Source of the DNA: Bdellovibrionota bacterium
GTDB lineage: Bacteria; Bdellovibrionota_C; UBA2361; JBIKUX01
DNA: 64,000 nucleotides
NCBI GenBank assembly: GCA_044347345.1
Contig: JBIKUX010000008.1
Location: 1-64,000, forward strand
Direction of reading: 5' to 3'
In this document: positions 48,978-64,000 of the stretch, one piece after another
How the letters are laid out: every line of letters starts with the position of its first letter
How positions within the stretch are numbered: position 1 is the stretch's first letter
Translations under genes and position numbers: made by a program
The notes under the pieces: generated by a model
The model's input: the letters and a program-made list of their open reading frames with translations, nothing else
Database searches by the model: none
Told to the model about the DNA's origin: nothing

Positions 48978-50114
48978 TCAAATCGGCATATCGTGCGACG
49001 CACTCTCAGAGGTAGTCCGCCGCCGCTTATCGTAGATCTGGGTAGTGGTGATTCGTTTATGCCCCAGAAGCTCTTGGACCTTGGTAATATCAACCCCTGC
49101 ATCAAGGAGAAGCGTTGCGGTGGTAGCCCTGAGCGAATGGGGCGAGTAGATGCACCGCTCAACCTCGATAGGCTTTCCATCTTCCCCCAACACCAGATTC
49201 CCAGCCTCATCTTTTACCTGCTCTTTGACCACAGCCCCTGGCAACTGCTTTAGGTAGCAAACGATCTTCCGCCATAGAGTCGAGGTATCTGCCCGCGCTA
49301 GAGCTAGCCTACTAGCATCCCTTGGAGCAGCTTGCGCCCGAAAAAGTGGGCCACTAGTAAGCTCAGCCTTGGCAATATGCTGGCGAATCGATTCAGCCGC
49401 AGCAAAGTGAATACCGATACGGCGCTGGGTACCCCCTTTTTCGCGAATTTTAAGCGTTGCATCGTGCTCATCATTGTAGAAGTCAGCGACATCAAGGAGC
49501 CGTAGGGTGTTAATCCGAATGCCTGTGTAGAGCAAAGTTTTGAGCATTGCTCGATCCTGGTAGTCCAGCACCCCTTCACCTGTTACAAGCCCCATAAGCT
49601 GCCTTGCTCGGGTGGCATTAAGGCTTAAGGTTTCTTGAACTGGAGAGCTTGCCAGCCGTCTAATAAACTGCACATGGGCTGGATTAGGCACCGTGATAGG
49701 TAGCCGCGCTTCAGCTGCACAGCCAGCCACAAACTGGTAGAAGGACGAAACGGCTGCCAATCTATGGTTAATGGTCTTAGGGGCTTTGTCTTGCTCAAGC
49801 ATTATCTCGCGCCAGTAGGCTACATCATGAATGGTGCCAGTAAGAAACCGATATGCTTCCTCTGGCCATACCCACCCCATGAACTCGATAAAGGCCATAA
49901 TCCCACGGCGATACGATCTTTGGGTATGGATGCTCTCTGACCTCTTTACCCACCGCTCAAAAATCTCGCCAATAGACTCATAAAACGACTGCACCCGGTT
50001 TTGTTGCGCTCGCTCAGACTCAAACCCCGCCAAAATTGGCGGCATGGCTACCCGTTGGTCATCGTCAGGCAGCAGCACCGTTGTTTTTACTGTTACCTCA
50101 CTTACATCCCCCAT
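48978..50114 (-). CDS. tyrosine recombinase (start taken at ATG 50114; ORF extends to 50171)
   Basis: APKTINHRLAAVSSFY, YTGIR, KGG, HSLRAT, LLGH..ITTTQIY: full catalytic set. Confidence 0.93.
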   Translation of the reverse strand: MGDVSEVTVKTTVLLPDDDQRVAMPPILAGFESERAQQNRVQSFYESIGEIFERWVKRSESIHTQRSYRRGIMAFIEFMGWVWPEEAYRFLTGTIHDVAYWREIMLEQDKAPKTINHRLAAVSSFYQFVAGCAAEARLPITVPNPAHVQFIRRLASSPVQETLSLNATRARQLMGLVTGEGVLDYQDRAMLKTLLYTGIRINTLRLLDVADFYNDEHDATLKIREKGGTQRRIGIHFAAAESIRQHIAKAELTSGPLFRAQAAPRDASRLALARADTSTLWRKIVCYLKQLPGAVVKEQVKDEAGNLVLGEDGKPIEVERCIYSPHSLRATTATLLLDAGVDITKVQELLGHKRITTTQIYDKRRRTTSESASHDMPI

Positions 50115-50148
50115 AGGCTCCCTTAACTTTATCTCCCCACACCTTTTG

Positions 50149-50174
50149 TGCAAGATAAGCTCTTTTATCATGCA
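50149..50174. other. dif/loxP-like 10-6-10 recombination core site
   Basis: TGCAAGATAA-GCTCTT-TTATCATGCA, arms 9/10 complementary, just upstream of the recombinase. Confidence 0.7.
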
Positions 50175-50190
50175 TTAAGACGAAGATCTA

Positions 50191-50244
50191 TTGACTATTT
50201 ATTACCCAGTAATTACGCTGTGTAAATGTAATTACTATGTAACT
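50191..50244 (+). promoter_or_regulatory. sigma70-like promoter overlaid with GTAATTAC repeats
   Basis: TTGACT (50191)-17 nt-TACGCT (50214); GTAATTAC at 50209 and 50228, partial copies near 50199, 50222, 50239. Confidence 0.55.
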
Positions 50245-50246
50245 TT

Positions 50247-51245
50247 ATGCCTATGAATGCTCCTTCCCTCCGAGAATCGCCCCAATCTCTAGAATATCAA
50301 GCCGCCTACGCCTGCTTCCAAGCCGCTGTCACCCTCAAGCGCGATGGCAGGCTAGTAAATGGTCCCCGCATCAGAGCGCTAGTGGGTCGAGGCTCTCACT
50401 CCACCACTAAAAAGTACGCCGATATCTGGAAAGCTCTTGAAGCTGGAGGAAGCCCGGATCTCTCCCCCGATGTCGAAGCCGCCTACGAAGCCGTCAAAGC
50501 CGGTAGCGAAGATCCAGCAGCCTTTACTCCCCCACCCCCAGAGGAGCTAAAAGACCTGCTTAACCAGCTCTGGGAGATGACCCAAGAGTGGATAGCCACT
50601 GGGTGCCGTAAGACCGAAGAGATGTGCGGTGACGAGTTGGCAGAGATGGAAGACAAGGTCACAGTAGCCAACGCCGCTCGCGACAAGGCAAAAGCAGAAC
50701 TTGCTAAACACGAGTCAGAGCGCGTCAAACTAGCAACCCAGAACAGTGAGCTAAAGCAGCTTACCTCCAAGCTAACCGGGCAGATGGAAGCCTTAGAAGC
50801 TAAGCTCAACGACCTAACCGATAAGAACGCCACACTTGAGCAAACCATCAATGAGCAATCCAACCAGATTGTCCGCTTAACAATGGAGGCACAAATCACC
50901 CAAGAGCGCCTCACCGAGAGCAAGCGACGGGAGGGAGAGGCACACGAGAGGGTTAAGACTACGCAGGAGCAACTTGAGAACCTGCGGGAAGCAAAGGAGC
51001 AGATTCAGGAGCGAGTCGCCCGGATGGAGGAAACAGAGAAGTCGCTCACCTCCCAGCTTGAGCGGGAGCGCACGCGGGTAGAGGCCTTGGATGGCAAGGT
51101 TTATGAGCAGGCCAGAGTTATTGCAGCCCTTACCGGGGAGGCGAAAGCTGCAGAGGAGCGGGCTAAAGCTTCCGAGGAGACGGTATCTTTACTTAGAAAA
51201 GAACTGCAACATAATGGAAAGACAAGCTTACCCTACATTAAATGA
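50247..51245 (+). CDS. KfrA-N/TnpT-like DNA-binding protein with long coiled-coil tail
   Basis: AA..L...G......IRALVGRGS.STT.KY...W N-terminus, PPEEL...L.QLW, then long heptad-rich tail. Confidence 0.8.
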   Translation: MPMNAPSLRESPQSLEYQAAYACFQAAVTLKRDGRLVNGPRIRALVGRGSHSTTKKYADIWKALEAGGSPDLSPDVEAAYEAVKAGSEDPAAFTPPPPEELKDLLNQLWEMTQEWIATGCRKTEEMCGDELAEMEDKVTVANAARDKAKAELAKHESERVKLATQNSELKQLTSKLTGQMEALEAKLNDLTDKNATLEQTINEQSNQIVRLTMEAQITQERLTESKRREGEAHERVKTTQEQLENLREAKEQIQERVARMEETEKSLTSQLERERTRVEALDGKVYEQARVIAALTGEAKAAEERAKASEETVSLLRKELQHNGKTSLPYIK

Positions 51246-56052: not shown

Positions 56053-57013
56053 TAATCAACTGAGCTAACTCTGATTTGGTTTGCTCGTAAATAACTACTA
56101 ACTTAGCGATGTCTTCTCGACTGGGCATAACTAAAGGTAGCCTACACTCACCGACATCTTCAGAAACCTCGTTCATAAGAGCCTTGATGGGAACTGGATT
56201 TGGGCCAATCTTAAGCAATGCCCTTGCTAGCGGATACATTACGTACATTACCTGAGCGGCAAGCTCAGTATTTCTTGATATCCAAGCGTTATACAAGGTG
56301 ACCATTCCCTCCGGCAAAACATTCGCTAAAACTGAGACTACTCCGCACCCACCTACGCTGAGTATTGGAAGAGTAAGCGAATCGTCGCCGGAAAGAATTG
56401 CTAACTTTCTTCCGCTTTTGCTGAGTAAAGCGGCAACTTCAGTGATCTCGTCAAGGTCACCGTTAGATGCCTTAAGCCCAATTACATTGCTACATTCTTG
56501 CGCAATCTTTGTAAGAGTTGCGGGCGAAATATTTATACCAGAGCGTCCTGGTATATTGTATACAACTAAAGGAACACCAATTTCATTAAGGGCACTAAAG
56601 TGCGCTATCAAACCTTGAGGCGAGGGCTTGTTGTAATAGGGGCACACAATTAGACATGCATCAACTCCGGCAAGTGCGGCTTGAGCAGTTAGTCGCACTG
56701 CCTCAGCTGTCGAATTTGACCCAGTACCCGCAATAGTTGTCATACCAAACGACTTCGCAGTACGAGCCACTAATTCTACAATCGCCTCATGCTCCTCGTG
56801 GCTAACGGTAGGCGATTCTCCAGTGGTGCCACATGGTACAACTCCGTTAACACCAGCTTGAGCCTGAGCCTTGATGAGCTCTTTAATGCGGTCATAGTTA
56901 ACCTCACCTTGCCGATTTTTAAATGGTGTGACTAAGGCAGTAGTAACGCCAGACAAATTAAGAGTATCCTGGTGGCCAACTTTTTTACTTGTATCGGTAT
57001 TTTTAGAAGTCAT
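56030..57013 (-). CDS. dapA: 4-hydroxy-tetrahydrodipicolinate synthase
   Basis: TALVTPF, CGTTGESPT, GTGSNST, PYYNKP, YNIPGRS, GLKAS, SGDD. Confidence 0.96.
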   Translation of the reverse strand: MTSKNTDTSKKVGHQDTLNLSGVTTALVTPFKNRQGEVNYDRIKELIKAQAQAGVNGVVPCGTTGESPTVSHEEHEAIVELVARTAKSFGMTTIAGTGSNSTAEAVRLTAQAALAGVDACLIVCPYYNKPSPQGLIAHFSALNEIGVPLVVYNIPGRSGINISPATLTKIAQECSNVIGLKASNGDLDEITEVAALLSKSGRKLAILSGDDSLTLPILSVGGCGVVSVLANVLPEGMVTLYNAWISRNTELAAQVMYVMYPLARALLKIGPNPVPIKALMNEVSEDVGECRLPLVMPSREDIAKLVVIYEQTKSELAQLITTSCLHQ

Positions 57014-58207: not shown

Positions 58208-58684
58208 TTAAAGTAACTTTGGTTGATGAGAGCCCGATACAGCTGCCAGAGACATCACGGCACTGCATGCCAACTCAAGGGCTAGAAGGTCACGGCTGCC
58301 TAATTTTATTCGGCGACGCTCCTCTTCTGTTCTACCGGTCACAATCCTTAACCAAGATGTTTCATTAGCGGATGGTTTTTGACCTTTCACCGTCTTATCT
58401 CGATATAATTTTATTAAAATGTCTGGAGTGTTATTCTCGTCACTACCCTGAAGAATAATATTTTCGTCAAGAGACTCAAACTCGTAGAGAAACGCCCGAG
58501 TAGTAGCCCATAAGCCTCCGACTGCATCAAGAGGAAGTAAAATATCAGCAGCTCCAGCTGTAGACGGAGCTTGAATACCCTCAACTATGGGAATGTAAAG
58601 CAGTCTAAGACCATTGGCCTGAGGAACAAGTTGCAAACGCCCAAAAGATTTGTTGATAAAAAATGTGATGCCACCGAAATACAT
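58208..58684 (-). CDS. hypothetical protein, candidate Whirly-fold ssDNA-binding protein
   Basis: AAGGGAG 9 nt before ATG 58684; two strand-rich plus helix repeats resembling Whirly by eye. Confidence 0.55.
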   Translation of the reverse strand: MYFGGITFFINKSFGRLQLVPQANGLRLLYIPIVEGIQAPSTAGAADILLPLDAVGGLWATTRAFLYEFESLDENIILQGSDENNTPDILIKLYRDKTVKGQKPSANETSWLRIVTGRTEEERRRIKLGSRDLLALELACSAVMSLAAVSGSHQPKLL

Positions 58685-58964
58685 ACGCACTCGCTCCCTT
58701 CAAAAAAAACACCTTAACGCTGTAACCTCTGTTCATGCCGAGTTAACCAAAAACCCTAGCGCGTGTCTTAGCAGCGTGCTCCCAAACTAAATTAGTCACT
58801 AATACTCAGTTATTACTGAGGAGTTAGAACATGCGTCATTTATTTTTAGTTATTTTATATTGCGGTGATACCAATCAGCTTTAGCCTGAGACTATATATT
58901 TTTTGCCTCATAAAAATATATACCTTGACTAGATAAGTGAAGAGGCCGAAAAAAAAGTTTAAGC

Positions 58965-59007
58965 TATTTATTACAGACAACAGATATTTATTACAGACAC
59001 TAGATAT
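58965..59007. repeat. 20-bp direct repeat upstream of the tra-like operon
   Basis: TATTTATTACAGACAACAGA / TATTTATTACAGACACTAGA / TAT. Confidence 0.8.
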
Positions 59008-59098
59008 GATTGTGCCTGAGGCTTATTAGCGTAGGCTCTCTTGTTAAGTTAGCGCAAAAAGCATTACCCGTAGCCAAAAATGGCAGGAGCAACTCAGT

Positions 59099-59791
59099 AT
59101 GAAAGGCCTTCTTTATTCAAACTCTCGCAAATCAACAAAGAGCTTAGTATTGAGTAAGACGATGATACTACTGTCTATCATCATAAATTCACTATTTTGC
59201 GGATTAACGTTGGCAGATGGGACCTCTAGTTTTGGTACTTCAGAAACTAACTCAAATGACCCTTCGGCTCCAGACGAGTATTTTGATAACACCAAAAAAG
59301 AAGTATCGGCCTCAGATTCCCAAGAACCCAAAACATCATCTCCTATCGCAGATAGTGGCTCCTCAAATACTGAAAATCAATTAGGTGACTCAGAAATAAA
59401 AGATGCTGCGACGGTAAAAAGTTCAGTTGCAGTCCAAGAATCAGATACTGCCCAACAAAATTTACCCACATCGGAAAAGAAAAATTCTCCCAACGCGCAG
59501 AAAGGTGCCAGAGCCTCGGTCTCTATAGCTACAGCCTCTAGCGAACAAATGGCCGCAGCTATTGGTCATTATGCCCGAGCTCGCTCGCTCCTAATAGCTG
59601 CAGTAAGAGAGTTCGATAAAGGAATGTCCAAGGCTGATGCTTCGCCCCTTCTTGACACTTATGTGTGGAGGGAGTCAATGATAAGTCACGCCGCTGAACT
59701 AGAGAGAATACTCAGTCCAAAACCACGAGAATCAAAAACTGGAGTTCAATTTGAACCAGATCCTAGGCTTTTAGGTGAAGCAACAAAGTAA
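59099..59791 (+). CDS. exported protein with disordered Ser/Asp-rich N-half and helical C-terminal domain; first gene of tra-like operon
   Basis: AGGAG RBS; signal-like hydrophobic stretch. Confidence 0.7.
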   Translation: MKGLLYSNSRKSTKSLVLSKTMILLSIIINSLFCGLTLADGTSSFGTSETNSNDPSAPDEYFDNTKKEVSASDSQEPKTSSPIADSGSSNTENQLGDSEIKDAATVKSSVAVQESDTAQQNLPTSEKKNSPNAQKGARASVSIATASSEQMAAAIGHYARARSLLIAAVREFDKGMSKADASPLLDTYVWRESMISHAAELERILSPKPRESKTGVQFEPDPRLLGEATK

Positions 59792-59873
59792 CTTAGGTCG
59801 ATAGAAAAAAGTACCGACAAAGCCTAAAGAAATTTAGGAATGGAGGGATAAATACCTAAACGGTGGTTTGTTG

Positions 59874-59907
59874 ATGGTGGTGCTTTTCATGGTGGTGCTT
59901 TTCATGG
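59874..59907. repeat. 15-bp tandem duplication before traL-like gene
   Basis: ATGGTGGTGCTTTTC x2 plus ATGG. Confidence 0.85.
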
Positions 59908-59916
59908 GTAAATTTT

Positions 59917-60339
59917 ATGGATAGTGGTGAAGAAATTCCCGGATTAGGAGATTCTTGGACATTTTTAGGTGCAAAGCCTTTTGAGTGGCTATCTGGCCTC
60001 CCTACTTTTTTAATAGTTTCTGAGTTCTTTTTTAAAGGCTCTGCCGCTAAAAATATGCCTATCCTACTTATTTGTATGATAGGAACTACAATTACCCTTG
60101 CAACTCTCAGACAACGGTTCCCAGATGAGGAGCGAGGTCTCCTAAATTTACTAGCTGTTAAGTGCGGTTTTCCGCCTCCAAACATCCCTATTCCTGCTGA
60201 GTTACAGCCTATTTGGAGCGGCGCACCAATAAGAGAGTTGCCGGCGGAACGCGAGTTTGTGCAACTCGGATTAGACAAGGTGTTTGATACAACCCCGTGG
60301 GATGAAAGTGACCCGAATCACAACACTAAAAATGCGTAA
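59917..60339 (+). CDS. TraL-like inner membrane protein
   Basis: IPGLGD..TFLG...FEW N-terminus, two TMs, position before traE/K/B/V. Confidence 0.55.
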   Translation: MDSGEEIPGLGDSWTFLGAKPFEWLSGLPTFLIVSEFFFKGSAAKNMPILLICMIGTTITLATLRQRFPDEERGLLNLLAVKCGFPPPNIPIPAELQPIWSGAPIRELPAEREFVQLGLDKVFDTTPWDESDPNHNTKNA

Positions 60340-60500
60340 ATATTTAAGTTTATCTGTCTAAAAAGTTACTCAAGTCGTTAAGGTCGTCAACCGTAGCATT
60401 AAGTAGAGAGAAGACGAACAAACGAAAGAAAAACTTTAAAACCAGTGATATAAATAAACTGGTAAGTAGCAAGAATTTGAACCAAAAGAGAAAGTAAAAA

Positions 60501-61160
60501 ATGGCAAAAAGGCCAAAAGAAGCAGTCTCACAGCTACTAGAGGCAAGTAAGGTCTCAAGCCTTGGTGAGACAAGTGATACGCTTAGAGTGTGGGATCAGT
60601 ATCGTGATGAAGCTCTGCTCTGGAGATCTGTCGCACTTTTTCAGGCTCCGGCTTCACTACTTCTCATAATTTTCTGCTTTTATCTTTGGAGTAGCCGACA
60701 CACTACGCTTCATGTCCCAGCTAAACCAGCACCCGGCATTTATTCTGCGGAAGAAATCCCTGATATAGTTTTTATTGATACCGCTACCGAATTTGTCAAC
60801 CTCATCGCATCTTATCAACCAATAATTGCTCGAAGACAATTTGAATCAGCTCGCGAGTTACTCGCTGAACCAATGCTCACAAGTTTTAGTCGGGAAATGC
60901 TTGAAACAGAATTAAGTGCTATCGAAACTACCAAAAGAACCCAGCTATTCTTTACAGACCCGACTAAAACAACAGTAAAACGAGACCGAGATCAAGTGAC
61001 AGTAAATTTTGTAGGTGAAAGATTAAAAATAGTAGCTGGACGTGAGTTACCATCTGTAACTTCAGAATATAGTATTATCCTGTCATCTATTCCTCACAAC
61101 AAACTTAACCCCTACGGTATAGCTATCGTGGGAGCAAATTTTAAAGATATAGTGCGATAA
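60501..61160 (+). CDS. traE: TraE-like (VirB8-fold) bitopic T4SS protein
   Basis: Single TM, TLHVP, F.NL..SYQP, V.FVGER...VAG, NPYGI; position before traK. Confidence 0.7.
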   Translation: MAKRPKEAVSQLLEASKVSSLGETSDTLRVWDQYRDEALLWRSVALFQAPASLLLIIFCFYLWSSRHTTLHVPAKPAPGIYSAEEIPDIVFIDTATEFVNLIASYQPIIARRQFESARELLAEPMLTSFSREMLETELSAIETTKRTQLFFTDPTKTTVKRDRDQVTVNFVGERLKIVAGRELPSVTSEYSIILSSIPHNKLNPYGIAIVGANFKDIVR

Positions 61161-61182
61161 TTTAGGAGCAATATTTTAACTA

Positions 61183-62016
61183 ATGAATACTCTGAGTCGG
61201 TCATCTTTCTTCGCTCGTATCAAACTAGCTCTTTGTTTTGTTGTTATCTGGGCGTTTGTTTTAGTCAGTGTGGGCTTACCGGAAATAGCTAGCGCCAGAA
61301 CTCTCGAATACGATCAAAGCGAAGTAGCTGTATACGTAAATCCTGGAGAACCTACCCAAATTAGGTTCCCCGGCACCATATCTGGAGGATTTAAAAAGAA
61401 AAAATCTTCTATCGCTTTAGACCGAAAACAATCAGATTTAATCGTTTTTGCCAACGAGGCAATAGCTTCTGAAGGAGAAGCCATTATAGTAAGACTAAAT
61501 GATGGTCGATCGTACTCTTTACGCATTCAACGGGCTGGAGAAAATACTCCACCGCGTGACGATGTAGTACAAATCGATGATCTTAGGTCACCTGTAACAC
61601 CTCTAGGAGAGGAGGAAGAAGAACCTCCTTTTAAAGAGCGAGACTTTCAATATGCTCCTCCAACACAAATTAGTGGCCTAATGCGTGAACTAGTCCTTCA
61701 CGCTGAATTTGCTAAATCTAATATTCCGGGCTACCGAGTCAGTGAAAGATACAAGGGTGAAACAATTTTGAATGATGGAACATTGCTCGCTACTATTGAA
61801 AAAATATTTATAGGCCGAGCACTTTGGGGGTATGTACTTACAGTTGAAAATCAACTCGATGTCGCTCAAAAGCTTAATCCAGCCACATTTAGAATAGATG
61901 GAACTCGGGCAATATCTGCAAATTATTGGGAACTCTCTCCACGACCACTTACTGTAGAACAACAAATAGCAGGTCGGCACAAATCTAAAGTGTACATTGT
62001 AACAAGAGCAAAGTGA
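61183..62016 (+). CDS. traK: TraK-like F-type T4SS outer-membrane core protein
   Basis: Signal peptide, PTQIRFP, DGRSYSL, GY.LTVEN...LNPATF...GTRAIS...L......SKVYIV. Confidence 0.8.
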   Translation: MNTLSRSSFFARIKLALCFVVIWAFVLVSVGLPEIASARTLEYDQSEVAVYVNPGEPTQIRFPGTISGGFKKKKSSIALDRKQSDLIVFANEAIASEGEAIIVRLNDGRSYSLRIQRAGENTPPRDDVVQIDDLRSPVTPLGEEEEEPPFKERDFQYAPPTQISGLMRELVLHAEFAKSNIPGYRVSERYKGETILNDGTLLATIEKIFIGRALWGYVLTVENQLDVAQKLNPATFRIDGTRAISANYWELSPRPLTVEQQIAGRHKSKVYIVTRAK

Positions 62017-62041
62017 GTAAGGTAGTAGCAGTAGTAACAAC

Positions 62042-63217
62042 ATGAAACAAAAACTCGAAGATTTACGTTTACTCGTTCAAGGCTCGCGCAAGGCTAAATT
62101 TGCTGTGTTCATGGGGATATTAATGATCCTCTTTCTTATCTTCGGACCAAAGGGAGCACCTCCTCGAAAAAGGCCGATACCTACAGCTCAGGAAAAAGGT
62201 ACTGAACCAACCACTCTTTCCGCGACAAAAGAACAGTCGGGAGATCTATTAGTACGATTTCAAACCGACGTAGAACAAATTCAAAAAAGCATTCAACAAA
62301 CTCAACAAGAAACTATTCAACTGAAAGAAGATTTGAAAGAAAACGAAGAACGTACCGCTCAAATACTCAAAAAAGTAATTGAAAGAATGGCTGATCAAGA
62401 TAGCACCTCTTCTGGTGGGGCTAATAGCCCAACAGGTGCACCAGTAACAGCTGAAGACCCCTACGCAACAACTGCTCCTGATGACGACGAAGAGGAACAA
62501 CTTGAAGGTTTTGGTAATGAAGAGCCAGAGGTTCTTCCGCCACCGCCACCACCACAAAAAAAAGTAGCCTTCGTAGGAGCTGGAGACTCAGTAAGAGTTA
62601 AACTACTTGCTGGAGTAAATGCCCCAACAGATGGCACCCCATACCCCGTCGTATTTGAATTAAGTGGCGATGTAAACGGCCCTGACGGTTCAACACTACC
62701 GTTAGGTGGGGCACGTTTGATTGCTGCGGCTCAAGGGTCTCTGACTGACCAACGAGCATTATTTCGTCTTACATCACTAAACATTCAACTGCCAAGCGGC
62801 GAGAGAAAAGTTTATGACGTAGATGGTTGGATTGTCGGAGAGGACGGCGTTCGAGGAATGTCTGGAGTTTTGATTGACCCAATCGGCAAAGCTATAGCTG
62901 GAGCCGCAATGACTGGTGCCATCGAAGGTGCCGGTCAAGGCCTGGCACAGTCAAATCAACAGGTATTTCAAAATGGCCAAGGAGGTGTATCCGTAATCAC
63001 AAATGGGAGCTTGACTGAATTTGCGGCGGGTCGAGCCGCAGCACGAGCATCTCAAGAATGGTCAGGTATAATCCGTCAGAGGTTAAATGCAATGGTTCCA
63101 GTAGTACAAGTATTATCAGGTCGTGAAGCAACTGCTGTTTTTTCAAAAAATCTCGCTGTAGAGGGATTAATTGAAGCTCTTGACGACGAAGAGAATGTTT
63201 ATGCATCACTCGATTAA
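62042..63217 (+). CDS. traB: TraB (VirB10-family) F-type T4SS protein
   Basis: TM, coiled coil, Pro-rich linker, LLAGVNAPT, GSLTDQRA..RL, GWIVGEDGVRGMSG, PVVQVLSGR...VF. Confidence 0.9.
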   Translation: MKQKLEDLRLLVQGSRKAKFAVFMGILMILFLIFGPKGAPPRKRPIPTAQEKGTEPTTLSATKEQSGDLLVRFQTDVEQIQKSIQQTQQETIQLKEDLKENEERTAQILKKVIERMADQDSTSSGGANSPTGAPVTAEDPYATTAPDDDEEEQLEGFGNEEPEVLPPPPPPQKKVAFVGAGDSVRVKLLAGVNAPTDGTPYPVVFELSGDVNGPDGSTLPLGGARLIAAAQGSLTDQRALFRLTSLNIQLPSGERKVYDVDGWIVGEDGVRGMSGVLIDPIGKAIAGAAMTGAIEGAGQGLAQSNQQVFQNGQGGVSVITNGSLTEFAAGRAAARASQEWSGIIRQRLNAMVPVVQVLSGREATAVFSKNLAVEGLIEALDDEENVYASLD

Positions 63218-63236
63218 ATTTATAGGCCAAACAAGT

Positions 63237-63680
63237 ATGACTCTCATTATGCGAGCATTTAGGCTTCTCTTACTATCCACAGTTATCTCAGCTTTTGTAG
63301 CATGTTCTACTGTTGGCAATGTAATGAACCCTTTTTATGAAGATCCAGCTCCAGAGGCTCTCTTAGGTAATCGTAACGACCACGCTTTAAACGGTGAGCA
63401 GTCAAAGGGCAGTACCGCTAGAGCAGCTCTTGAACAAATGGCATCCTATCAAGCTGCACAACCGCCTGGACCAAATAGACCAGTTATAAATCCTGCTGTA
63501 GTGAGACTTATGTGGGTGCCAGACCATGTAAACAGTAATGGAGATCTTGTCCCAGCTCATTTCTATTATCTAAAAGTTAAAAAAGAAGACTGGGCTGTAA
63601 GAGATGCTTTTGAACTAGAATCACAACTGGGATCTCGCTCTGGTGATGCGAGCTCAGTACCTTATGTCCCAGTTAAATAA
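63237..63680 (+). CDS. traV: TraV lipoprotein (start at ATG 63237; ORF extends to 63171)
   Basis: FVAC lipobox; RLMWVPDHVNSNGDLVPAHFYYLKV..EDW matches TraV motif. Confidence 0.85.
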   Translation: MTLIMRAFRLLLLSTVISAFVACSTVGNVMNPFYEDPAPEALLGNRNDHALNGEQSKGSTARAALEQMASYQAAQPPGPNRPVINPAVVRLMWVPDHVNSNGDLVPAHFYYLKVKKEDWAVRDAFELESQLGSRSGDASSVPYVPVK

Positions 63681-63733
63681 GTAGGAGAACATCAAAGAAT
63701 TGAGCAATCACTTAAAAGCTATCATAATAAAAG

Positions 63734-64000
63734 ATGAAACTTGTAATGCCTCTCTTAATATTTTCGGGTAATTATGCTGGAAATCATAAAGGCTACATTA
63801 CTAGGCTCTATCAGCAATATACGTGTGCTATAGTAGCTATTGCTACTATAGCTTTATCGATATTAGTCGGATGTTCAAAGTCATCACGCCCAGCTTTAGA
63901 AGTAAATTCTAATTTACAGAGTAAAGTTAAAGAAAGAGTCTATTTTTTTCCTACCCGACAGCTTCCGCCTCCTCCAGTTTATGGAAGACTAATGTCAGTG
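63734..64000 (+). CDS. partial lipoprotein continuing the tra-like operon
   Basis: Not in ORF track. 89 open codons to the edge, with AIVAIATIALSILVGC lipobox and RQLPPPPVYGR. Confidence 0.6.
   Translation, partial: MKLVMPLLIFSGNYAGNHKGYITRLYQQYTCAIVAIATIALSILVGCSKSSRPALEVNSNLQSKVKERVYFFPTRQLPPPPVYGRLMSV

Follow-up and report, generated by a model that had tools for sequence, protein, structure and literature searches.

A probable resident type IV secretion system of F-type ancestry on the chromosomes of Bdellovibrionota

The Legionella Dot/Icm system is a lineage-wide chromosomal effector type IV secretion system (T4SS) and serves, together with the killing T4SS of Xanthomonadales, as a model of effector injection. 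The toxin exporter Ptl of Bordetella and the DNA uptake system ComB of Helicobacter are P-type (VirB-like) and have no coupling ATPase (T4CP). MobH relaxases join an HD-type domain with a DUF1528-type C-terminal domain; the MobH-linked branch of the F-type systems (MPF_F) is represented in our comparisons by the IncA plasmid pRA1. The T4SS of the gonococcal genetic island is reported to work with a TraI relaxase and with ParA/ParB (PMC8716806).

A 13-kb T4SS gene cluster has its onset at 58.2–64.0 kb of the window (the whole 64,000-nucleotide stretch analysed, numbered as contig C22) and ends at contig position 71.2 kb. It encodes o230, a TraL-sized protein, TraE, TraK, TraB, TraV, a DotD/secretin-N0-like lipoprotein (lipo195) and TraC, followed by small proteins, an SH3 protein, an M23 peptidase and two VirB2-like pilins, after which housekeeping genes begin (a patatin-Omp85 protein, CN hydrolase and hemB lie 3′ of the pilin genes). 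No description of this system was found in the literature searched. The tra genes lie in F-type order where the original prediction had located them, and a lipoprotein gene with an LVGC lipobox, rather than traC, does directly follow traV. The start given for the feature, 58208, is where a gene on the minus strand ends, and that gene does not belong to the tra set. Likewise, the open reading frame in the traA slot is indeed a non-pilin exported protein, having an N-terminal hydrophobic segment and low complexity, whereas TraC and the pilins are not absent: both lie just past the window end. The tandem 20-nt repeat upstream of o230 may be a regulatory site.

Table 1. Features of the T4SS cluster and of related genes on other contigs
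Feature	Position	Strand	Remark
o160m	58208..58690	-	160 aa, very highly conserved; outside the tra set
tandem 20-nt repeat, family D4	58962..59001	.	two copies, 85% alike; intergenic, upstream of o230
o230	59099..59791	+	exported low-complexity protein in F's traA slot
o140L	59917..60339	+	TraL/VirB3-sized, two hydrophobic helices
TraE	60501..61160	+	putative; VirB8-like bitopic inner-membrane subunit
TraK	61183..62016	+	putative; VirB9-like core subunit
TraB	62042..63217	+	VirB10-like
TraV lipoprotein	63171..63680	+	lipobox FVAC
lipo195	63734..64000, gene cut by window, contig end 64321	+	lipobox LVGC
TraC	64335-67049	+	contig C22, beyond window
o115 lipoprotein	67080-67427	+	contig C22, beyond window
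o122	67470-67838	+	contig C22, beyond window
membrane protein, bacterial PH domain	67910-68434	+	C22, beyond window; bPH_2 E 3e-7
SH3b protein	68548-69660	+	C22, beyond window; SH3_3 E 6e-8
M23 peptidase	~69665-70165	+	C22, beyond window; Peptidase_M23 E 1.7e-34
VirB2-like pilin gene, first	70332-70748	+	putative; C22, beyond window
VirB2-like pilin gene, second	70726-71202	+	putative; C22, beyond window
decayed T4CP	C7:104565-106220	-	Walker A + B degenerate
o684 homologue	C7:106240-108270	-	other contig than cluster
TraG_N-like paralogue	C58:15079-18399	+	weak TraG_N match
TraG_N-like paralogue	C45:97162-100680	-	weak TraG_N match

TraB matches Pfam TrbI (E 5e-12, 46.5 bits, cut-off 35) and the NCBIfam F-type TraB model PRK13729 (E 8.9e-13). 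TraV reaches 21.7 bits with PF09676 (cut-off 21), and its family profile aligns to TraV of plasmid pRA1 with an hhalign probability of 94%; its true start is likely the ATG at 63237, 3′ of the TraB stop. The TraK protein of this genome matches TraK_N and TraK_C weakly, with E 0.054 and 0.009 respectively and the two domains in the correct order, and 16 of 20 orthologues match one or the other, with every score under the cut-off. TraE matches TIGR02761 (E 0.06), and 17/20 of its orthologues match Pfam TraE, ten of them over the cut-off. TraC (904 aa) begins 14 bases after lipo195 and matches Pfam TraC_F_IV (E 4e-18) and TIGR02746 (E 4.2e-56), which is the best of ten VirB4-type models, although with 190 bits it falls short of the equivalog cut-off, 567. 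By these profile matches, the locus encodes the TraK–TraB–TraV outer core and the TraC-type VirB4-family ATPase of an F-type T4SS. The assignments of TraK, TraE and the pilins in this genome are putative and correspond to sub-cut-off matches to curated models. The label of o140L as TraL-like, which reflects only its position, size and two hydrophobic helices, is tentative: Pfam TraL matches neither any of 20 orthologues nor the window's own copy, hhalign finds no match to pRA1 TraL, and the 25-sequence alignment of the family has 18 invariant columns.

TraU, TraW, TraF, TraH and TraN were not found at E ≤ 0.001 in this genome, which is 95.8% complete (models PF06834, PF12477, PF13728, PF06122 and PF06986, each positive in an E. 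coli control). Two TraG_N-like paralogues of about 1100 aa are encoded on other contigs (22.9 and 19.7 bits, cut-off 36.1); the family occurs in 38/41 relatives and has a copy directly upstream of o230 in two genomes, G001 and G033. Pfam and NCBIfam searches with o230 gave no match; its conservation is confined to the C-terminal ~90 residues, and residues ~140–230 match in 55 of 72 loci. Each pilin gene encodes a leader and two hydrophobic helices. The two pilins match NCBIfam VirB2 with E 0.028 and 0.01, and Pfam TrbC/VirB2 matches, below its cut-off, 7/20 family members (19 relatives and this genome's own first copy, which itself has no match). No TraA model matches them, and hhalign against pRA1 TraA was empty.

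The PDB sequence search with lipo195 gave no match. Its AlphaFold model has a mean pLDDT of 76.5, with 96–98 across residues ~111–180, and in Foldseek it comes closest to DotD chains from the Dot/Icm core of Legionella (E 6e-4); next in the ranking are the N0 domains of PilQ and MxiD, VirB7 of Xanthomonas and the crystal structure of DotD. The modelled C-terminal domain is thus apparently DotD/secretin-N0-like.

No tRNA is present in contig positions 57000–76999, no direct repeat brackets the cluster as att sites would, and its composition (GC 0.42, GC3 0.314) shows no shift from that of the genome (0.409 and 0.301 ± 0.048, from 1069 long ORFs), all as originally predicted. In the suggested comparison of codon usage, GC3 is native and the codon-frequency distance from the genome is mildly raised (0.174 vs 0.124 ± 0.019); only 1.3% of random gene sets are equally far by this measure, which mixes in amino-acid composition. 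The cassette that the prediction had described as foreign is distinct from the cluster. It lies at 48978–51245, 8 kb upstream, has a GC3 of 0.53–0.58, encodes a KfrA_N protein and a tyrosine recombinase, the only integrase found, and is without a homologue across the 1.52 Mb of loci compared from 87 relatives. Between the cassette and the cluster are the native-GC genes of DUF445, an AI-2E transporter, dapA and yaeQ, the last two being the housekeeping neighbours already noted.

The relaxase search comprised TrwC, Pfam Relaxase and TraI_2; TrwC was found in 1/31 genomes, Pfam Relaxase in 4/31 and TraI_2 in 0/21 (E ≤ 1), and none of these in this genome. Downstream, where ICE parts had been suggested as a check, there are TraC, small proteins, SH3, M23 and pilin-like genes and no relaxase. 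To judge from the sequence, the cluster is not an ICE: it has no relaxase of the families searched, and an integrase of its own, att repeats, a tRNA target, foreign composition and a patchy distribution appear to be equally absent.

TraC is near-universal, being present in 39/41 relatives and in 121 of the 124 phylum genomes, including all 73 of high quality (the genomes compared are all MAGs, in which binning errors are possible). Its identity is 64–73% within the order (72 full-length matches) and 57–62% in other orders (28), and it follows that of RpoB to this genome (Spearman 0.77, Pearson 0.88, n = 73). In 21 genomes, the TraC tree has 8/18 splits in common with the RpoB tree, against a maximum of three in 5000 label shuffles; the ten splits that disagree are mostly short, weakly supported branches. 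A search of 1.84 billion representative proteins gave a single full-length cluster at 70% identity, and the next full-length sequences are at most 30% identical; the best plasmid TraC has 21–25% identity. The suggested synteny comparison indicated a constant gene order in same-order loci with differing flanks. In 72 such loci, TraC was found in 69, TraV in 66, TraB in 62, TraK in 60 and TraE in 57; the missing genes fall at contig ends, apart from one locus with TraC alone; queries with dapA, yaeQ, patatin, CN hydrolase and hemB had no match in these 72 loci. The same gene order occurs in 11/13 genomes of other orders. The complete ICE, patchy distribution and incongruent tree that would have spoken against a domesticated T4SS were not encountered; the near-universal TraC, the agreement with the RpoB tree and the lack of a detected relaxase support this part of the original prediction.

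The T4CP occurs in 114/124 phylum genomes, with full-length matches 58–100% identical, and in relatives o160m adjoins it as the final gene of a divergent o684–T4CP–o160m unit. The single T4CP homologue of this genome lies on contig C7 and is about 35% identical to the T4CPs of relatives. The Walker A motif is AKTGVGKT in 32/32 aligned relatives and SYSNVTNLKT here, and Walker B, h-h-h-IDEG in the same 32, is ILVDDH. The T4CP is decayed in this genome while every core gene stays intact and conserved, and the functional T4CP of a conjugative element is, by these motifs, apparently lacking. A number of separate lineages likewise lack the T4CP or have a decayed one; G020, G032, G118, G027 and G120 have no T4CP match at E ≤ 1e-20 and keep TraC at 64–65% (the first two) and 68% identity (the other three), and the core therefore outlives the T4CP. 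The decayed protein could act as a non-catalytic adaptor, and an undetected T4CP could be encoded in the ~4% of the genome outside the assembly. Given a T4CP without Walker motifs and an intact core, T4CP-independent working is therefore favoured for this organism. A cyanobacterial linear plasmid carries a T4CP 61% identical to that of the phylum, so horizontal transfer is possible for some components.

The observed gene content, inheritance, lack of recognisable relaxases and T4CP decay are best explained by a host-owned, vertically inherited, phylum-wide T4SS of F ancestry, which in this genome probably works without coupling-ATPase activity and in a role other than conjugation. In the assembly, contact-dependent use and cargo delivery that we infer, TraK, TraB and TraV with the DotD-like N0 lipoprotein would by homology form the outer core, and TraE, the TraL-sized protein, TraC and the unlinked, polytopic TraG_N-like protein the inner-membrane platform. 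The M23/SH3 pair would open the peptidoglycan locally, and the VirB2-like pilins would form a pilus or conduit. In most lineages, the divergent unit of o684 (a membrane protein), intact T4CP and o160m may feed cargo to the machine, whose delivery would be contact-dependent and directed into another cell, prey or host. In this genome, the unit is broken up, with the T4CP homologue on another contig, and the system may be a pilus-based device for contact and attachment or, like Ptl or ComB, an exporter that works in two steps. A whole group of uncultured Bdellovibrio-like bacteria would then possess, as a permanent and inherited chromosomal organelle, a reduced version of the F mating machine, with this locus as its main gene cluster.

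An unlikely alternative is that the T4SS handles DNA, through export of chromosomal ssDNA, injection of DNA into a cell or ComB-like uptake, with o684 as the descendant of a MobH-type relaxase anchored in the membrane, and with o160m as a coat on ssDNA. The pRA1 order mobH-traD ... traLEKBV-traA ... traC is consistent with it, as is the position of o160m beside the T4CP in relatives. The o160m protein (14 orthologues, 71% mean column identity, 62 invariant columns) had no match in either Pfam or PDB sequence searches; by protein-atlas features, the second of the matches listed (score 0.92) is a cluster with Pfam Whirly in 12% of its members, which is a lead to a Whirly-like ssDNA-binding fold and not proof of one. 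In VIA-align comparisons of the o684 structure model (pLDDT 81.9), the middle domain weakly matches HD-domain proteins (Z 6.8–8.2) and the C-terminal domain STY4665 DUF1528 (Z 6.8), but for helical models Z values of 7–8 can arise by chance, according to the aligner's own guidance. Moreover, Foldseek with o684 was empty at E ≤ 0.001, the hhalign probability of its family against pRA1 MobH is 0.35%, none of all 28 members scanned matches a Pfam relaxase family, and the consensus reads E-A-G-K where it was compared with the HD motif. The lack of TraI_2 in the genomes searched and the decay of the T4CP in this one also argue against DNA handling.

We consider improbable a T4CP-dependent injector of protein effectors for predation or parasitism that is being lost in this genome. 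The T4CP is intact across most of the phylum, the M23 peptidase and SH3b protein are encoded inside the operon, the group falls, by its record titles, among MAGs of Bdellovibrionota, Bdellovibrionales and Oligoflexia, and the repeated loss or decay of the T4CP would suit a system on its way out; however, 15/15 cluster ORFs of this genome are open and conserved, contigs from RNA libraries (four libraries of one study, which may include DNA) span the cluster and are identical to it from o230 through the pilins, and TraC persists in the five genomes without a T4CP match. A passive remnant of an integrated conjugative element or plasmid, to which the F-type ancestry of the tra genes, the recombinase cassette and the raised codon-frequency distance might point, is highly improbable and already contradicted by the GC3 and isolation of that cassette, the native genes in between, and a TraC that is near-universal, tree-congruent and conserved almost like RpoB.

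The resident F-ancestry T4SS that we favour resembles the F-type systems and pRA1 in the order TraL slot, TraE, TraK, TraB, TraV ... TraC, in the T4CP nearby in relatives, in the best score of TraC with the F-type model and in the alignment of TraV to its pRA1 counterpart. Unlike them, it has none of the relaxases searched for and no TraU, TraW, TraN, TraF or TraH, its pilin is apparently nearer to VirB2/TrbC than to TraA, it has an extra DotD-like lipoprotein, an M23/SH3 pair and several unassigned genes, and it is chromosomal, vertical and phylum-wide, with a TraC at most 30% identical to outsiders. With the F-like, ssDNA-secreting T4SS of the gonococcal island it shares an F-like machine in a use other than plasmid transfer; that island is horizontally acquired, whereas the system here is vertical and no relaxase was found. 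The decayed T4CP and the T4CP-less genomes suggest T4CP-independent working as in Ptl and ComB, which are P-type, and the likeness is one of functional analogy only. Compared with Legionella Dot/Icm, the core genes here are F-like and not I-type, and the structural likeness covers the DotD/N0 fold alone; nevertheless, both are lineage-fixed machines of conjugative ancestry, and the N0 lipoprotein resembles DotD.

The F-like type IV secretion system (T4SS) cluster on contig C22 (JBIKUX010000008.1) is a reduced gene set with its own pilins that has been inherited vertically throughout the phylum. The contig is 97,363 bases long; the window covers its positions 1–64000, so both share one numbering. 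It belongs to a 2.53 Mb genome of 68 contigs, with a GC content of about 40% and a completeness of 95.8%. The positions of the cluster genes and of the other features discussed are listed in the table, in which o230, o140L, lipo195, o160m, o684, o115 and o122 denote ORFs without a family name. The upstream neighbours of the cluster are yaeQ, dapA, an AI-2E transporter and a DUF445 protein; beyond its end lie a patatin–POTRA–Omp85 protein, a CN hydrolase, hemB and then more metabolic genes. The patatin-like phospholipase fused to POTRA and Omp85 directly follows the pilin genes and has the build of PlpD-type (type Vd) autotransporters; in the relatives' loci around TraC, it is not conserved beside the cluster. 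Two zinc metalloproteases resembling reprolysin/M12B (615 and 530 aa), no more than 9 kb apart, are also encoded downstream. The 408-base gap between o160m and o230 contains a tandem pair of 20-nt sequences, 85% alike, which may be an operator for divergent promoters. An Rfam search of 44–64 kb gave no match, and a promoter and terminator scan returned counts no higher than in shuffled sequence.

Positions of the T4SS genes and of associated features on contigs C22 and C7 of this genome and on loci (L numbers) from this and other genomes
Feature	Position	Strand	Remarks
Foreign cassette	C22 48,978-51,245
Tandem 20-nt pair	C22 58962-59001		in the o160m/o230 gap
o230	from 59.1 kb	+	first cluster gene; exported, low-complexity protein
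o140L	after o230	+	140 aa, two hydrophobic helices; protein of the TraL slot
TraE, TraK, TraB, TraV	after o140L, in that order	+
lipo195	after TraV; window end falls inside the gene	+	195-aa lipoprotein
TraC	start 64335, beyond the window	+	904 aa
o115, o122, bacterial-PH-domain membrane protein	after TraC, in that order	+	o115 is a small lipoprotein
SH3b protein, M23 endopeptidase	after the PH-domain protein	+	SH3b protein is a coiled coil
Two tandem pilin-like genes	last in cluster, to 71.2 kb	+	T4SS-pilin build
Patatin-POTRA-Omp85	C22 71355-73565 (L002:14356-16566)	-
M12B-like metalloproteases	C22 ~77.2-79.0 kb and 84.1-85.7 kb (L003:1185-3032, L003:8115-9707)
Walker-less T4CP and o684 homologue	C7 104565-108270 (L089:12566-16271)	-	near contig end
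TraC region of G041	L085 8735-12715		small-genome family
T4CP of plasmid pLBX	L095 19782-21851		Leptolyngbya boryana

At the level of profiles, the assignments of TraB, TraV and TraC are solid. TraB is matched by TrbI at 5e-12 and also by the F-type TraB model PRK13729; TraV lies above the Pfam cut-off, and its family profile aligns with TraV of the IncA plasmid pRA1 at an hhalign probability of 94%. TraC is matched by the F-type model TIGR02746 at 4.2e-56, the best among ten VirB4-type models, although below the equivalog cut-off. TraE and TraK are weak in this genome and gain their names through orthologues: Pfam TraE was found in 17 of 20 (ten above the cut-off), and TraK_N or TraK_C in 16 of 20 (none above it). 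The original prediction had read traL-like, traE, traK, traB and traV in F-type order; the TraL label of o140L has no profile support in any of the 20 orthologues. The slot of traA is indeed occupied by an exported non-pilin protein, o230, and the lipoprotein noticed after TraV in place of TraC does follow TraV, with TraC as the next gene. When family profiles were aligned with individual proteins of pRA1, no match emerged for TraL, TraK, TraE, TraA and MobH; a single-sequence target is insensitive, and this result is not evidence against homology. A sequence-profile search of the PDB revealed no relative for lipo195, o684, TraK, TraV, TraE, the pilin or o160m, which indicates that the system has strongly diverged.

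Each of the two pilin-like proteins combines a long leader and two hydrophobic helices with a cleavage-type site (A-x-A), and their matches to VirB2/TrbC are weak. Among 20 family members scanned (19 relatives and the first copy of this genome, itself without a match), Pfam TrbC/VirB2 was found in seven, always below the cut-off. The AlphaFold model of lipo195 has a mean pLDDT of 76.5, rising to 96–98 in the C-terminal domain. Its top Foldseek matches are DotD chains of the outer-membrane core of Legionella Dot/Icm (E 6e-4), followed by N0 domains of secretins (PilQ, MxiD), VirB7 of Xanthomonas and the crystal structure of DotD. Because of these matches, the modelled lipo195 is taken to be a DotD/VirB7-like protein with an N0 domain that has been inserted in an F-like core. 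Contigs C58 and C45 encode two TraG_N-like paralogues of about 1100 aa, 50% identical to one another, whose scores are weak (22.9 and 19.7 bits, where the cut-off is 36.1). This family is present in 38 of 41 relatives, and in G001 and G033 a shorter copy lies directly upstream of o230 in the orientation of the operon, which ties the family to the machine.

The gene order is kept across the relatives as o230, o140L, TraE, TraK, TraB, TraV, lipo195, TraC, o115, (o122, PH-domain protein), SH3, M23 and pilin. In a sample of 72 loci around TraC from species genomes, many of which end at contig ends, TraC was found in 69, TraV, lipo195 and o115 in 66 each, TraB in 62, TraK in 60, TraE and SH3 in 57 each, o230 and o140L in 55 each, M23 in 53 and the pilin in 38. 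Queries with dapA, yaeQ, the patatin gene, the CN hydrolase and hemB matched none of the 72 loci; thus, the order within the cluster is kept, while its chromosomal neighbourhood is variable. In other orders of the class, family HMMs recovered the identical order in 11 of 13 genomes, and one more is colinear up to a contig end. Three genomes from other orders (G061, G065 and G045; loci L148, L150 and L151) carry two TraE copies side by side, and o115 is duplicated in all 12 other-order loci holding genes beyond TraC. The exception to the kept order is the small-genome family of G041 and G042, in which TraC stands alone among gyrA, rml genes and ruvB. These are the smallest and most divergent genomes (1.2 and 1.8 Mb), and their cluster is broken up: in G041, TraC lies between pepA/gyrA and rml/ruvB, with a 403-aa ORF lacking a family assignment upstream. 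In this family, TraB is on another contig, and no gene of the coupling ATPase (T4CP) was found at E <= 1e-20.

TraC was detected in 39 of 41 relatives from 21 families, in 121 of the 124 genomes of the whole phylum and in all 73 of the high-quality ones. The relatives' genomes are MAGs of an uncultured group; TraC is usually single-copy, and extra matches are gene pieces at contig ends. The identity of TraC is 64–73% within the same order (72 full-length matches) and 57–62% in other orders (28), compared with 68–77% and 56–68% for RpoB of the same genomes, so the conservation of TraC comes close to that of RpoB. The identities of the two proteins are correlated (Spearman 0.77, Pearson 0.88, n=73), with no significance claimed because the relatives are not independent. 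The trees inferred by maximum likelihood for TraC and RpoB of 21 genomes have eight of 18 internal splits in common, against a maximum of three in 5000 label shuffles, and most of the ten discordant splits are short, with weak support. In a set of 1.84 billion representative proteins, a single full-length cluster reaches 70% identity to TraC, and the next full-length match is at most 30% identical; the names of the nearest clusters outside the phylum gave little taxonomy. The best TraC proteins of plasmids, from more than 5000 matches, are 21–25% identical, and the neighbourhood of the best-scoring one, on a Myxococcus plasmid, is uninformative.

The cluster is not a mobile element. No tRNA was found at 57–77 kb, and no direct repeat brackets the cluster, the sole long repeat being the tandem duplication of the pilin gene. 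Its GC content is 0.42 and its GC3 is 0.314, versus 0.409 and 0.301 ± 0.048 for the genome (1069 long ORFs), so the native composition and the lack of a tRNA or att repeat at the junction, as originally predicted, are borne out. The codon-frequency distance, a measure that includes amino-acid composition, is mildly raised (0.174 vs. 0.124 ± 0.019), and only 1.3% of random gene sets are equally distant. The cassette placed at 48.7–51.4 kb and called clearly foreign is so by its GC (0.52–0.55) and by a GC3 of 0.53–0.58, where the genome has 0.30; its products are a tyrosine recombinase (Phage_integrase, E 5.5e-20) and a DNA-binding protein of plasmid type with KfrA_N. Native genes stand between it and the cluster, and a search of 87 loci around the cluster in relatives (1.52 Mb in total) found no homologue of its proteins. 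The cassette has no connection with the T4SS and represents a small insertion of foreign DNA. Relaxase models gave no match in this genome; among the relatives, TrwC was found in one of 31, Pfam Relaxase in four of 31 and TraI_2 in none of 21 at E <= 1. TraU, TraH, TraN, TraF and TraW_N also gave no match in this genome, with the E. coli control positive each time. A passive ICE remnant is effectively excluded, and the reading of the core as domesticated is upheld by the missing relaxase match, the near-universal TraC and the splits shared with RpoB.

In the relatives, the stretch between o160m and o230 contains genes of the opposite strand encoding o684 (a membrane protein of about 680 aa), T4CP (about 720 aa, Pfam TraG-D_C) and o160m. 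T4CP is present in 114 of the 124 genomes, with full-length matches 58–100% identical to the query, and both the Walker A motif AKTGVGKT and the Walker B motif h-h-h-IDEG were found in all 32 aligned sequences. In this genome, o160m directly abuts the cluster, and the sole homologues of T4CP and o684 are on contig C7. The coupling ATPase is decayed there: it has 551 aa, is about 35% identical to every relative and reads SYSNVTNLKT at the position of Walker A and ILVDDH at that of Walker B. The accompanying o684 homologue (676 aa) is about 23% identical to the relatives, and a TadE-like gene and a 787-aa gene without a known family adjoin the pair. A similarly divergent T4CP copy (29% identity) was found in G122. 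Ten genomes, including G020, G032, G118, G027, G120, G041 and G042, have no T4CP match at 1e-20, and several of those without a match keep TraC at 64–68% identity; thus, the core outlives the coupling ATPase in several lineages.

The model of o684 (pLDDT 81.9) predicts a bundle of membrane helices at the N-terminus, together with two soluble domains. Foldseek found no structural relative at E <= 0.001, and the protein atlas gave no usable match. The VIA-align matches to HD-domain proteins (Z 6.8–8.2) and to STY4665 DUF1528 (Z 6.8) are in the chance range and have no profile support. Pfam scans of all 28 members yielded scattered single matches only, and 72,556 plasmids searched with tblastn contained no match at E <= 1. 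The extremely conserved o160m has a single lead, a protein-atlas feature match (0.92, second among those shown) with a cluster that has Whirly in 12% of its members. A T4CP 61% identical to that of the phylum (residues 75–606) is encoded beside a protelomerase on pLBX, a 505-kb linear cyanobacterial plasmid, and occurs in four records of Leptolyngbya boryana; the annotation shows no further tra gene within ±20 kb. The similarity may point to an exchange of genes between the phylum and cyanobacteria.

The products of the cluster would build an envelope-spanning machine and a pilus, probably used in contact with other cells. Most lineages would deliver cargo through the T4CP module, and in this lineage the machine would probably act without T4CP, either via the pilus or by two-step export. 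Two rival readings are live: DNA as the cargo, and the injection of effectors by a system that is beginning to be lost in this genome. A possible but, taken as a whole, rather doubtful extension of the cell-contact reading is that the F-derived machine is the defining cell-contact organelle of this uncultured Bdellovibrio-like phylum. Its conserved primary job would need no coupling ATPase, because the core persists at nearly the conservation of RpoB where T4CP is lost or disabled, and T4CP/o684/o160m would be an accessory cargo module, possibly for ssDNA. In the same proposal, the T4SS architecture would be new, combining an F-like core, a DotD-like lipoprotein, a VirB2-like pilus and the proteins o684, o160m, o230 and o115 of no known family.

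Metagenomes from lakes and fresh water contain the cluster stretch in many studies. Within a single study, four metatranscriptome libraries contain contigs that are identical to it over the span from o230 to the pilins, and several of these contigs bridge adjacent genes. RNA libraries may hold DNA, and contigs cannot show a transcript; these contigs are compatible with expression of the cluster and are no proof of it. In the same four runs, the cluster is covered and several flank bins (yaeQ, the patatin gene) are not, which was not used as an argument for transcription because missing contig cover is not evidence.

A literature search on Bdellovibrionota/Oligoflexia and chromosomal F-type T4SSs, with subscription journals and supplements outside its scope, found no description of such a system, and passages of PMC12865303 and PMC13147790 do not describe it either. 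For annotation pipelines, the cluster is a warning that tra genes on a contig do not prove a mobile element. It also gives a handle on the lifestyle of these freshwater bacteria, be it predation, epibiosis or DNA exchange, and the lineages with and without a working coupling ATPase are natural experiments that could separate the role of the core from what the coupling module adds.

F-type machines are normally a hallmark of plasmids; here, such a machine has turned into core gene content throughout an uncultured phylum, with TraC conserved nearly at the level of RpoB. Lineage-fixed T4SSs, such as Dot/Icm and the rickettsial system, tend to define the life of their lineage with other cells.
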